NCBI RefSeq assembly: GCF_036365525.1
Contig: NC_090378.1
Location: forward strand, 93,671,605 to 93,735,604
Length of the DNA: 64,000 nucleotides
From: Heterodontus francisci
Lineage: Eukaryota
Direction: 5' to 3'
The translations under genes and the position numbers were made by a program. The notes beneath the pieces are model-generated. The model saw only the letters and a list, made by a program, of their open reading frames with translations. It did no database searches and had not been told where the DNA came from. This document shows, in pieces, positions 8,140 to 12,533 of the stretch. Numbering within the stretch: position 1 is the stretch's first letter; each line of letters opens with the position of its first letter.

Positions 8140-8550
8140 AATGACCGGGAAATGCCTATAGCTTTCCCAAGCTGTTCTGTTGCTGCACGGGCGCGCGCGT
8201 TCCAAGTTTCCCTGTGACTTTCCCCGGGCACTGGTCTCGTGCTCAGAACTGTCAATCATCCCCGGGCCGGAGCTGTCAATCATCCCCGGGGCGGAACTGG
8301 CAATCGCAAGCCCGGTCTCTGCTGCTGACCAGAGGAAAAGGCAAAGCGGGCCTTTTAAGGGGCCGCCACCGTCTTGCTCTAAAAATACCACGAACGATTC
8401 GAAGTTGTAGTTACTTCAACTGTTTTGCTTCCGGTATTATTATCCTCTGCACAGCTGGGCTGTAAATAAATAATTTTAGCGGCGCTGGACCACAGTCAGC
8501 ATCAGCATCAGCTGGTAAAGCCCTGCACCCTTTGTGCGGCCCTGTAAGTG
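8140..8550 (+). promoter_or_regulatory. CpG-rich promoter and probable non-coding first exon of the kinase gene
   Basis: Dense CpG patch in apparently non-repeat DNA; two CTGTCAATCA (PBX/PREP-MEIS decamer TGATTGACAG) at 8249-8258 and 8273-8282; GC box 8288-8294; ETS CTTCCGG ~8428; kB-like sites; donor gtaagt at 8544; no ATG in 8341-8543. Confidence 0.65.
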
Positions 8551-8918
8551 ATGGGGCGGATGTAGCAGCAACAGGAAGCTCTTTGTGTTGTTCGAAGGTG
8601 GAGCCACACTACTCTTCAGAATAATCAGACCTTCCAACACAGGCTCATTTCTCAGATTCACCGAAATTTTACAAGTAAAAACATGTTGGGAAACACTCAG
8701 CAAGTCAGGCAGCATCTGTGAAGAGAGAAACAGAGTTAATGTTTCCGATCAAAGGCCTAAAACTATCAGCATTTTCAGATTTCCAGCATCTGCAGTACTT
8801 TGCTTTTGAGCATATTGCTTAGTATACTGGCCTGAACAAAACAAACAAAGAGATTGAGAACGACCAGAGCTTCTGAAGACAACGAACAGCATCTTCAGCA
8901 TTTGTCTGAATCTTTGAG

Positions 8919-9660
8919 CTGGATTTTGCGGTCAGCAGCGAAACGACGCTATTCACAACTGATCTCGAAGAAAGCTGTCCACAAAGATCCAGCGAGCTCT
9001 GTGGCGTGGATTTCCACTTTCCCAGTATCAGTTTAAATCTGGCGCCAAGTCAAGGGGATCTCCAGGCATCCAGCTGTCATCAAGCAGGGTAAGTATCCAA
9101 TCACATTGAAGAATTCTCGCAGACAGCAAACCAGGAAGTAAAATGCACTGATTATCCTTCACTTTTTGATTATCATTTCACAGAGAGTAAAATAAATGAC
9201 TGGGACATACACATGTGATTAAGATAGAAGATGAAATATCGTAAACTATAAGAAAAAAATTTAAAATCCGTGGAATATTTTTTATCAAAATGGAGAAATT
9301 TGATATTCCACAAATATAAAATTAGTTTCTCGGGGCAAGAATGTTTTGTTTTCAGCAGTAATTATGGACTTAGTATGCCATTAAAAACCCAGTTACACCT
9401 CATACAACATTCAAACTTTTTTAAGGGTTTTTACAGTGAAACTAATAGTGCAACAGGGTAAGTTCTCATCAGTTCAGTGTGCTCTACTTGACAATCGTCT
9501 GCAGGGACTTCAACAACACTCCATGTGGAGAAGTGTAAAATCACTGACTGCAGCTGCTGGATTTCTGCATTTAGCAGTGCATGTGCGGACTCCAGAAGTA
9601 GTTGTCAATTTCAGAGGAGTAATGACGGCAAACGCTGACAGTTAATATTGCAAAAACCAG
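8919..9660. mobile_element. Probable non-autonomous DNA transposon
   Basis: Short terminal inverted match ctggattttgc / gcaaaaaccag; no coding capacity. Confidence 0.4.
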
Positions 9661-9743
9661 ACCTTTATCTTTGAAATTTTCCTAATGTTGGAATGTGAGG
9701 TAAAGGAAATAACATGTATTTCACACTTGGTTACCATCTGTAA

Positions 9744-10385
9744 TAGAACATAGAACATTACAGCGCAATACAGGCCCTTCGGCCCTCGATGTTGCGCCGA
9801 CCTGTGAAACCATCTGACCTACACTATTCCATTTTCATCCATATGTCTATCCAATGACAACTTAAATGCCCTTAAAGTTGGCGAGTCTACTACTGTTGCA
9901 GGCAAGGCGTTCCACGCCCCTACTACTCTCTGAGTAAAGAAACTACCTCTGACATCTGTCCTATATCTATCACCCCTCAACTTAAAGCTATGTCCCCTCG
10001 TGTTTGCCATCACCATCCGAGGAAAAAGACTCTCACTATCCACCCTATCTAACCCTCTGATTATCTTATATGTCTCTATTAAGTCACCTCTCCTCCTCCT
10101 CTCTAACGAAAACAACCTCAAGTCCCTCAGCCTTTCCTCGTAAGACCTTCCCTCCATATCAGGCAACATCCTAGTAAATCTCCTCTGCACCCTTTCCAAA
10201 GCTTCCACATCCTTCCTATAATGCGGTGACCAGAACTGCACGCAATACTCCAGGTGCGGCCGCACCAGAGTTTTGTACAGCTGCAGCATGACCTTGTGGC
10301 TCCGAAACTCGATCCCCCTACTAATAAAAGCTAACACACCATATGCCTTCTTAACAGCCCTATTAACCTGGGTGACAACTTTCAT
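9744..10385 (-). mobile_element. CR1 LINE 3' fragment
   Basis: [19 protein letters not shown]...FFTQRVV..WN.LP; tagaaca tail. Confidence 0.93.
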
Positions 10386-11121
10386 CTGCAATTTACCTGG
10401 GCTAGGAATTCTGGGAAAAACTTCAGTGAAATGGTGACAAGAGTCCTGATGACAGATGGTTCTGGGATTGCAGCCTGCAGATGTGAAATCAATGTCTTTA
10501 TCATTGTACAATCAGATCATAAATTACTTATGATAGCTATGAGAGGGACAGTATATCAGAGGTCATCAGTCTTTTGGAAATCCAAAAAAAAATTTAGTAT
10601 GACTGACAGAGCTTGAATGTTTTTTTGGCCAGTCAGTTGTGTGATGTGTTGGAACCCATCATCTTAGTTTAGCACCTGAAGTGGTGTGGAAATTTCTACC
10701 AGTGCACCAAAGGTACTCTTAAGAGATCGGGCAAAAGGACATTCTTAAGGCAGACAGAAAAACACAAAATGCTGGAAACACTCAGCGGGTCAGGAAGTAT
10801 CTGTAGAGAGAGAAACGGAGTTAACGAATCAGAATGTTAACGACAGGTTAACTCTTAAGGCAGAGTTGAGGCAGCTTCACTTTGTAGCTGGCTACACTGT
10901 GCCTACCCTAAAAGTGCGCAGTACTGATATTGGGTCCTCCACTGTGAAGGCCTCCCATTCCTTTCTTCAATTAGTTATTGTTTTGCTTTCCTGTGTACAA
11001 CAGTGCCCCTTTGTATTACACACCCACAGTAAATATTGTTTCATCACAGGCAGCTGAACCTTATATTTAATTATGAAAACCAAGAGGGAAGGCGAAGGCC
11101 CAAAGTGCAGAACAACACCAA

Positions 11122-11789
11122 GGGTGGAATGTTATGCTGTGGTGGAGGCCCTGCCCACCAGCTTAAAAGTCAGTGATGAGTCCACCTCCCTTGGGCTTGG
11201 AAGCCACGCAGCACCTTTGCATGTCTCCGGCCCTAAATTGGCCTCAGTCGGCACTACCGCCCTCTGAGGCAGCAAGTCCCGCCTCTAAGAGCTGCTGGCC
11301 AATCAGAGGGCTGGCAGCATGTCAGTCCCAGCAGCATCACTGGGAGCGGTGGTCACTGCTGGGACTGCACCCAGCCAGAAGAGCAAGAGGGACTCTGGCC
11401 CCGAAAGAGGTGAATGGGGTTTTGGGCCTCGCCAGGGACAATCGGCAGGGCTCTGGTGAGGGAAGTGGGGGTCCATGAAGAGGGTGGGGGAGGTACTCCA
11501 GCGGGGGTGGCCTGATCCGAGGAACCACCATCCCCCCCACCCAGCCTGCAATGATGCCACCTGGTATTACCGGGCAGCCTCCTCAGCTGACACAGTGCCC
11601 AGCTGCTGCTAGTATACCAGCGGTGGCAGAACGAGGCTCTTAAGTGGCAATTAATTCGCCTCAATTGGCTTGGGGATGGTGAGCGGTATGCGCCCCCCAC
11701 CTCCCACTTGATTTTAAGCACCCAGCTCCCCCCCCCACTCCCCCCCCCAACCTCCAGCCTACTCCTGGGGGGGTGTAAAATTCCGGCCC
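11122..11789 (+). mobile_element. GC-rich MITE (family A)
   Basis: TIR-like ends gggtggaatgttat / gtaaaattccggccc; homologous to 26632, 55511 and 61273. Confidence 0.75.
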
Positions 11790-12422
11790 ACGTTTGGAAA
11801 TGGCAGGAGCAAAGATGAGGTAAATTCAGGTCTAATGTTAGATCATACGAAGTCTAAAGATAAATTTAAGGTTTAGTGCAAGGTGATATCAAAGCTTTAA
11901 AATCTTGTGGATTGTAGGAAGACTGAATGAAGGAGTGACACAATTTTGACCGTTTGGAAAAGGTTGACTTTGAATAAAGGAATGGTGAGCTCAATCTTAA
12001 TTTCATTATAGCGACGAAGCAGAAAGGAGGAAGTGTGTAGGCTGATGTATTTGGAGAAAAGAACGGTTCAGTAAGGCAGTAACGTTGTAGTATTGATGAA
12101 ATGGAGAAAGGACAGAACAATTATGACAGAGGGCACAAAAGGCAGGAAAGGTTGTCAGGAAGGCTGTCAGGATATCTGTCTATTGTTCAGAATGTAGTAA
12201 CCATGAGGAATAATGCAACTGGGTATGCTAACCAAAAGGAAACTGATATTTCTATTACTGAGGGCACGTCTTTGGCAAATCATTTTGAAGAAACCAAAGC
12301 TTGCCATTTCTGACGTGCAACAATGTTGCAGTTATAAAATGCTTAAATGAACATGCTTAATAAACTGTGATTGTTACAGCTTTTATCACTAAGAACTTTA
12401 CATATCTCTTGTAAAGGTTCAC

Positions 12423-12533
12423 ATGATGTGGCGCACGGAGAATATATTAGACAAAGTAAGAAAAGTCTTGCAGCAAAAAGGGTATACAGATATTGAATGC
12501 ATCGGCCAAGGCGGATTCAGCATTGTATATAAG
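12423..12533 (+). CDS. Coding exon 1: start and kinase subdomain I ([37 protein letters not shown])
   Basis: Acceptor ctcttgtaaag ends at 12416, ATG at 12423, glycine-rich loop, donor aag|gtaggt, phase 0. Confidence 0.85.

Follow-up and report, generated by a model that had tools for sequence, protein, structure and literature searches.

The window analysed here is a 64,000-nucleotide stretch of the horn shark Heterodontus francisci, positions 93,671,605-93,735,604 of contig C8 in a 6.0-Gb genome (G000), and it carries most of a gene for a protein kinase of the GCN2 type. A search with its exons returned three proteins, and the cluster holding those proteins also contained P0004 (XP_067892609.1, 893 aa, 'eIF-2-alpha kinase GCN2-like', Heterodontus francisci), to which the product of the gene is identical. 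A model of 23 exons running from 12417 to 79633, with AG acceptors and GT donors, translates exactly into this protein; the last three exons (21-23) lie beyond the window end, at 64387-79633 in a numbering continued from the window. The preliminary description of this locus had discussed the gene in terms of GCN2; the canonical EIF2AK4, complete with RWD and pseudokinase domains, sits intact on a separate contig (C9). The window gene is a duplicate of EIF2AK4/GCN2, i.e., a second GCN2-type gene and not the shark's own GCN2. The paralogue shares 25-29% identity overall with canonical GCN2, and its kinase lobes are 37-38% identical to those of the shark's canonical protein. A pseudogene is ruled out by the intact frame and family-wide conservation, a retrocopy by the introns common to EIF2AK4, and a mis-assembled GCN2 by the complete gene on C9, one exon query having matched only C8 and, weakly, C9.

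Residues were counted in an alignment of 12 rows from the family of this gene and its shark and ray orthologues and 220 GCN2 rows (isoforms, fragments and many teleosts included; five PKR-like rows dropped), with human and yeast residue numbers taken from PDB alignments. The catalytic motifs and activation-loop threonines are intact, as in eIF2alpha kinases: D252, K254, N257, D270, T308, T313, T351 and E354 are kept in 12/12 family rows, and K50 and E68 in 11/12 (one row is truncated). The long beta4-beta5 insert, with its W129, and the alphaG Thr/Glu docking motif are present, and all 18 PDB sequence matches at E <1e-25 are eIF2alpha kinases, GCN2 first. The kinase is followed by a domain resembling histidyl-tRNA synthetase (HisRS) and an anticodon-binding-like domain, with a Pfam match (PF13393) that is weak and below cut-off. 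The predicted model, built from a 52-row alignment (predicted local distance difference test, pLDDT, 68; predicted template modelling score, pTM, 0.43), has an N-terminal helix, a kinase fold, a pair of junction helices and a fold of the HisRS type. The top Foldseek match to it is the human GCN2 HisRS-like domain (8t7t, E 6.8e-23), GCN2 rows having been in the model's alignment. A single-sequence fold was unusable (pLDDT 36), and the Protein Atlas matches for residues 417-893, all <0.9, serve as leads only. The inter-chain pair described for the GCN2 HisRS domain is represented by His501 in 12/12 and Trp797 in 11/12 family rows.

The paralogue nevertheless fails to show four defining features of canonical GCN2, namely the RWD domain, the pseudokinase domain, the tRNA-binding arginines and the C-terminal dimerization/autoinhibition domain (CTD). 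The motif-2 Arg (human R1144) is Leu in 12/12 family rows versus Arg in 211/220 GCN2 rows, while the HisB Arg and Asp (yeast R1325 and D1327) are Gln and Thr in 11/12 family rows versus Arg in 197/220 and Asp in 199/220 of GCN2. The R585/E589 pair is likewise Leu16/Gly20 in 11/12 rows (Arg in 219/220 and Glu/Asp in 219/220 GCN2 rows), and the N-lobe Arg-Asp/Glu salt bridge of the active eIF2alpha kinase dimer is absent. All of these replacements occur in every family row that covers the sites. The longest acidic run in the kinase insert measures 2-4 residues versus 10 in GCN2, the P+1 loop is changed, and the residues after alphaG differ from GCN2 and include an insertion. The protein stops just past the anticodon-binding-like domain with a short basic tail, and seven CTD queries matched nothing in the 200 kb downstream on C8 (best E 0.59), the C9 exons being found as a control. 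There are 17 cysteines that are invariant where present, 14 of which are not Cys in the canonical protein. A Cys/His cluster takes the place of part of the HisRS insertion domain, in a region of the model (631-645) with pLDDT <50. Residues 631-645, encoded by exon 42547-42645 and the next exon, hold a C-x4-H-C-x3-C cluster in 13/14 species (the truncated Heptranchias model is the exception), and the full C-x2-C-x4-H-x4-C, which we take to be a zinc knuckle pattern, occurs in four: whale shark, zebra shark and both bamboo sharks. It should also be noted that an 842-aa isoform (P0001) skips the in-frame 51-codon exon 43455-43607, which would drop two predicted helices of the insertion domain.

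The absence of RWD and pseudokinase exons had been claimed for the sequence upstream of the gene within the window, and it extends to a far larger region. Both tblastn and profile searches with nineteen GCN2 N-terminal halves over 284 kb, made up of the window with 200 kb upstream and 20 kb downstream of it, matched only the gene's own kinase exons or noise (upstream tblastn E 0.19; profile E 3.6 and 5.1), and a 27-sequence profile had the same outcome. As a positive control, the same profiles recover at least 9 N-terminal exons of canonical GCN2 on C9, with the limit that C-terminal-half profiles find 7 and 8 of the gene's own 23 exons and that single diverged exons can escape. In the ~44 kb interval between the ATG and an oppositely oriented upstream gene, every plus-strand frame of at least 150 codons is at least 70% repeat, and therefore the canonical 534-nt pseudokinase exon has no counterpart there. 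No RWD domain was found in any of the eight family proteins scanned. A genome-wide, exon-by-exon Pfam search was insensitive, as PF13393 missed both GCN2 genes and PF05773 missed the canonical RWD on C9, and its results were not used as negatives.

At the 5' end, the CpG island recognized in the preliminary description (8150-8550) has a GC content of 0.54 and a CpG observed/expected ratio of 0.79, compared to 0.425 and 0.29 in the surrounding 284 kb, and a query of 8060-8660 had one genome match, itself. The candidate first exon was correctly described as ATG-free: ATGs occur at 8141 and 8152 and next at 8551, with none in 8155-8550. The island likely comprises the first non-coding exon and a promoter, the role that we infer for it. 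The tandem ATGs 12423/12426 do follow the AG acceptor at 12417, and a start about 20 residues before beta1 agrees with the predicted structure, which places this strand at residues 21-29. The intervening 8551-12416 had been characterized as mostly repeats; a local test masks 37% of it (a lower bound), and a likely exon with a consensus donor after 9088 had been overlooked. The last codons before this donor, L-S-S-S-R, resemble the short N-terminal extensions of other sharks, whose orthologues begin with M-S-S-S-R, M-S-S-N-K or similar and continue with V-H-M-M-W of the 12417 exon. Scored against five orthologue N-termini, the 9088 donor was 1st of 1113 candidate donors (score 80, next 57, mean 9.6, standard deviation 10.4) in an anchored test that was designed after the site had been spotted by eye and whose five peptides are not independent, their last residues being common. 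With the Stegostoma peptide alone, the donor was only joint third, and plain tblastn of the orthologue N-termini versus 1-12440 found nothing significant. The longer Stegostoma and Rhincodon extensions resemble, by eye, the stretch before this donor in different reading frames, as expected for untranslated sequence. A TGA closes the kinase frame if the exon extends as far as 8960-8962, while an alternative acceptor before 9026 would give a 63-nt open exon (9026-9088), to which the upstream island supplies no ATG. Most likely, the exon that precedes the 12417 acceptor belongs to the 5'-UTR, which largely answers the earlier caveat that distant coding exons might lie upstream; the part of that caveat concerning the acceptor holds, as this is phase 0 and open. 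For expression and for the 5' end, the basis is database protein models. The island itself contains, at 8249-8290 and ~8426-8434, two copies of an 18-nt unit 24 nt apart with a weaker third copy, and the ETS-type motif CTTCCGG; the 18-nt unit was not found in 67 other loci.

Table 1. Features of the GCN2-type paralogue and its 5' region (window positions).
Feature	Position	Strand	Content
CpG island	8150..8550	+	Likely promoter plus non-coding first exon; possible donor sites near 8514 and after 8543
In-frame TGA (kinase frame)	8960..8962	+	126 nt before the 9088 donor
Likely 5'-UTR exon	8984..9088	+	Donor rank 1/1113; provisional 5' boundary, alternative start at 9026
Coding exon 1	12417..12533	+	ATGs 12423/12426, predicted N-terminal helix (residues 5-18), beta1, glycine loop; L16/G20
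Coding exon 2	22032..22335	+	beta3 Lys50, alphaC Glu68, start of kinase insert, GCN2-type APPP...SVEW motif
Coding exons 3-5	23797-23930, 25571-25633, 25890-26015	+	Remainder of insert (long acidic run absent), beta5 to alphaE
Coding exons 6-8	29942-30043, 31247-31313, 31826-31914	+	HRD, DFG, activation loop T308/T313 (human T899/T904), APE
Coding exons 9-11	33500-33598, 33895-33972, 35046-35291	+	alphaF, alphaG with T351 (human T943), kinase end, predicted junction helices 422-453
Coding exons 12-15	35939-36023, 39144-39265, 39639-39688, 40909-41062	+	HisRS-like catalytic core; motif-1 His501; motif-2 Arg to Leu567, loop 5 residues shorter
Coding exons 16-17	42547-42645, 43455-43607	+	Shortened insertion domain with Cys/His cluster
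Coding exons 18-20	48185-48304, 51222-51323, 51758-51886	+	HisB Arg to Gln729, Asp to Thr731; motif 3; start of anticodon-binding-like domain, Trp797

Cluster look-ups identified orthologues in 14 species (12 sharks and 2 batoids), a total of 45 proteins of 725-936 aa, and with one isoform per species all 14 have 26-59 residues ahead of the glycine loop. Among the best 120 of 345 matches in a near-length search, ten have 74-94% identity and are all from sharks and rays, the rest being GCN2 and other eIF2alpha kinases at no more than 33%; a longer fused form above 31% identity was not seen among 120 listed of 565 matches. When 1.84 billion representatives were searched with a profile, the first match scored 1634 bits and the second 318, with the limit that members inside the 50% cluster of the first are hidden, where a chimaera orthologue could sit. 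Three shorter invertebrate or unnamed profile matches were set aside as probable fragments or isoforms, each with a longer member in its 90% cluster. In protein searches, no chimaera, skate, stingray, cyclostome or bony vertebrate orthologue was found, with sawfish and electric ray present, and secondary losses or database gaps are possible explanations for skates, stingrays and chimaeras. Between horn shark and sawfish, identity reaches 86-87% over the kinase C-lobe, the junction and the first HisRS block. Three Heptranchias perlo models (P0026, P0418 and P0419) are without ~116 residues that span HisB, motif 3 and some of the anticodon-binding-like domain, which reflects either an assembly or model gap or real decay in that species. 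The paralogue carries an automatic database name only, and literature searches aimed at this gene, together with one on GCN1 independence, in a collection short of most subscription papers and book chapters, brought up no description of it.

The introns bear upon the origin of the paralogue. When compared with the C9 gene, 11/22 have the same column and phase and 19/22 lie within five columns in the same phase, whereas random placement yields a mean of 0.16 exact matches and a maximum of 3 in 10,000. Thus, the paralogue is a DNA-level duplicate. Depending upon the model, the stem leading to the family measures 2.4-5.0 changes per site, and branches within the crown ~0.1 or less. When hagfish, tunicate, urchin and hemichordate are included and fungi are not used as an outgroup, the family comes out as the sister of all vertebrate GCN2 (Shimodaira-Hasegawa-like approximate likelihood ratio test 86, unstarred). 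The approximately unbiased test rejects a grouping with the shark's own GCN2 (p-AU 0.014 under LG+G4, subject to a long-branch caveat), while an origin on the jawed-vertebrate stem is not (p 0.18). Mixture-model trees leave the family unplaced among animals, and fungal or plant outgroup trees leave it unplaced or drawn to the outgroup. The spacing from beta3-Lys to alphaC-Glu is 18 in the family and in invertebrates versus 17 in hagfish and jawed-vertebrate GCN2; this indel agrees with a family that would branch outside vertebrate GCN2, and re-insertion on the long branch is possible. Judged from these sequences, an early-vertebrate duplication followed by loss in bony vertebrates is likely.

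The oppositely oriented neighbour begins ~44 kb before the ATG, and its first exons resemble a PTB-domain protein (Protein Atlas 0.90-0.93, which that tool's recognition score rates as weak), with no match in Pfam or PDB. Its first two exons and a CpG promoter lie at L011:7674-8069 (minus), ~32 kb before the window start and head to head with the paralogue. We take this gene to be NOS1AP. On the other side, an RGS-domain exon lies at ~+265 kb (L066:1334-1678). If this naming of the neighbours is right, the duplicate occupies a different neighbourhood from EIF2AK4. At ~82.7-85.4 kb before the window start (L016), there is a CpG-rich element, single-copy in this region, that contains a 393-codon frame and one resembling an endonuclease (minus) and that looks like an L1/Tx1-type retroelement. 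Of thirteen ORFs compared with Pfam, twelve upstream or 5' and one intronic, none matched a family. Intron 1 holds a 140-codon open frame (19158-19577, minus) with a high coding-like score, which is unmasked as a local repeat, has no Pfam family and is possibly a low-copy transposon gene.

Published work on GCN2 gives functional meaning to several of these parts. With the m2 mutation (F1143L/R1144L), tRNA binding is lost and ribosome binding is reduced, deleting the CTD increases basal activity about 20-fold, and a human kinase plus HisRS construct still responds to ribosomes (PMC6421407); how close such constructs are to the shark protein depends upon the boundaries given in the supplement of that paper. 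R1325A also abolishes tRNA binding, whereas D1327 changes act via tighter CTD contact (PMC4335047). The HisRS domain is dimeric without the CTD and needs the His-Trp interface (PMC11363354), and a kinase/HRSL construct is constitutively active, RNase-insensitive and dependent on the junction helices (PMC11606652). A conserved insert strand (human 695-723) has an inhibitory effect, which eIF2alpha can relieve by means of an acidic patch (bioRxiv 10.64898/2026.09.09.750423). The pseudokinase had been assumed to be required for activation. This assumption fits human cells, where the domain does matter (PMC12867742), but in vitro it is mostly dispensable for activation of human GCN2 by ribosomes (PMC6421407), and the paralogue is also without the inhibitory CTD; losing the pseudokinase need not disable it.

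Taken with the anatomy described above, we give about an even chance to the paralogue being an eIF2alpha kinase that dimerizes via its HisRS-like core and acts without GCN1 or tRNA, held by other brakes. The HisRS-like and anticodon-binding-like domains would hold two chains together, and the junction helices would position the kinases for activation-loop phosphorylation. Because the RWD domain is missing in all 14 species, GCN1 would not recruit the protein, and the GCN1 independence proposed earlier gains support from this pattern. Without a CTD, the main brake of GCN2 would also be gone. Restraint could come from the retained inhibitory insert strand, whose acidic release patch is eroded, from a kinase dimer weakened by loss of the R585-E589 salt bridge, and from the place and time of gene expression. 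The output would then be standing or tissue-specific eIF2alpha phosphorylation, not a starvation response. The paralogue derives from GCN2, and its mode of action is probably that of the activated GCN2 core, with a likely role in protein synthesis control without amino-acid starvation sensing.

Several observations weigh against an autonomous, dimerizing kinase of this kind. Its anticodon-binding-like domain has only 13% identity with that of the shark's canonical protein, the model has a low pTM, and unrestrained activity of a kinase/HisRS-only GCN2 is predicted to be harmful (PMC11606652). R585Q renders human GCN2 hypomorphic (PMC11336063), and the shark protein may accordingly have low activity or depend on a new activator. 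The m2 change lowers ribosome binding, yet the kinase plus HisRS construct responds to ribosomes (PMC6421407), which makes P-stalk sensing possible. The region after alphaG has diverged and gained an insertion, and with T943A scored as benign (PMC11336063), T351 alone is no proof of the substrate. A new ligand would account just as well as a scaffold for how strongly the remodelled HisRS block is conserved.

A possible alternative is that the paralogue is a new stress sensor, off at rest, in which another signal, such as a metabolite, a metal or redox change, or foreign RNA, is recognized by the Cys/His cluster or in the remodelled HisRS-like pocket, and eIF2alpha phosphorylation follows. The very long stem and very short crown branches are the pattern expected after a change of function, and the replacements in the pocket are fixed throughout the family, as are the invariant cysteines, with the cluster in 13/14 species. 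However, no test indicated a ligand, the cluster sits in a low-confidence part of the model, and simple release from tRNA binding would also explain the loss of basic pocket residues. We consider rather unlikely the more specific scenario of a further eIF2alpha kinase of early vertebrates that was born from GCN2 before the hagfish/jawed split, was kept only by sharks and rays, and had its HisRS-like domain rewired from tRNA and ribosome sensing to a new signal. If true, the rewired domain would be an unknown input into the integrated stress response.

An active kinase with a substrate other than eIF2alpha is unlikely. The limited identity of the kinase lobes, the changed P+1 loop and post-alphaG sequence and the basic tail, which could direct the protein elsewhere, would all be compatible with it, and the patch that binds eIF2alpha in human GCN2 is the acidic run that is cut to 2-4 residues here (bioRxiv 10.64898/2026.09.09.750423); on the other hand, the alphaG Thr/Glu is retained, as is the beta5 motif that typifies eIF2alpha kinases, and 18/18 PDB matches belong to this class. 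It is very unlikely that the protein is a weak or regulatory paralogue that damps canonical GCN2 or competes with it for eIF2alpha or the P-stalk. Although it has natural changes at positions where GCN2 is impaired by mutation (R585, R1144 and yeast R1325 and D1327; PMC6421407, PMC4335047, PMC11336063), the catalytic residues and both activation-loop threonines are invariant, the dimer surfaces have diverged far from those of the canonical copy, and the D1327 defect works through CTD binding (PMC4335047), in a protein that here has no CTD. Hardly credible is an annotation artefact in which distant or very diverged RWD and pseudokinase exons splice onto the 12417 acceptor: the open phase-0 acceptor and possible 63-nt exon would permit it, exon-wise profiles detect only about a third of the gene's own exons, and the database models come largely from one annotation pipeline, but the length of 725-936 aa of the 45 proteins from 14 species, the lack of RWD in 8/8 scanned, the opposed PTB-domain gene with repeat-filled frames in between, and a CpG island without ATG all argue against it.

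Stress signalling through eIF2alpha in vertebrates is usually described with four kinases, and the shark and ray gene is a candidate for a further one. Fish PKZ is a lineage-specific extra eIF2alpha kinase that derives from PKR and has a swapped sensor domain. Both are duplicate eIF2alpha kinases with an altered regulatory part in one vertebrate lineage, except that the shark gene is GCN2-derived and reduced. With canonical GCN2/EIF2AK4 (human 8T7T, yeast 9F58, shark C9), the paralogue shares the long beta4-beta5 insert with APPP...SVEW, the junction helices, the HisRS-like and anticodon-binding-like domains, their collinear order and intron positions, whereas it is without the RWD domain, charged linker, pseudokinase and CTD, has a shortened insertion domain, and has its own N-terminal helix, Cys/His cluster and basic tail. 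Its domain content is that of the engineered kinase/HRSL construct, which is reportedly active without tRNA or ribosomes (PMC11606652; series in PMC6421407), but the paralogue is a natural, long-conserved gene with changed tRNA-binding residues and kinase-dimer salt bridge. GCN2-like kinases without RWD are also known in Plasmodium, Toxoplasma and Dictyostelium (PfeIK1, TgIF2K-C and Ifk; PMC10002013, PMC4889150), and thus the idea of an RWD-less GCN2 is not new in kind. PfeIK1 and TgIF2K-C lack the pseudokinase as well, yet these kinases are still activated and GCN1 independence has been proposed for them (PMC10002013, PMC4889150). Unlike the shark gene, a vertebrate duplicate alongside an intact GCN2, the protist kinases respond to starvation for amino acids and are of independent origin. 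Sharks keep a gene of the kinase/HisRS-only type that was predicted to be harmful (PMC11606652), and they keep it with its tRNA-binding arginines replaced. The gene also offers a natural test in the current dispute over whether the GCN2 HisRS-like domain is a tRNA sensor or a dimerizing activator held back by other domains.

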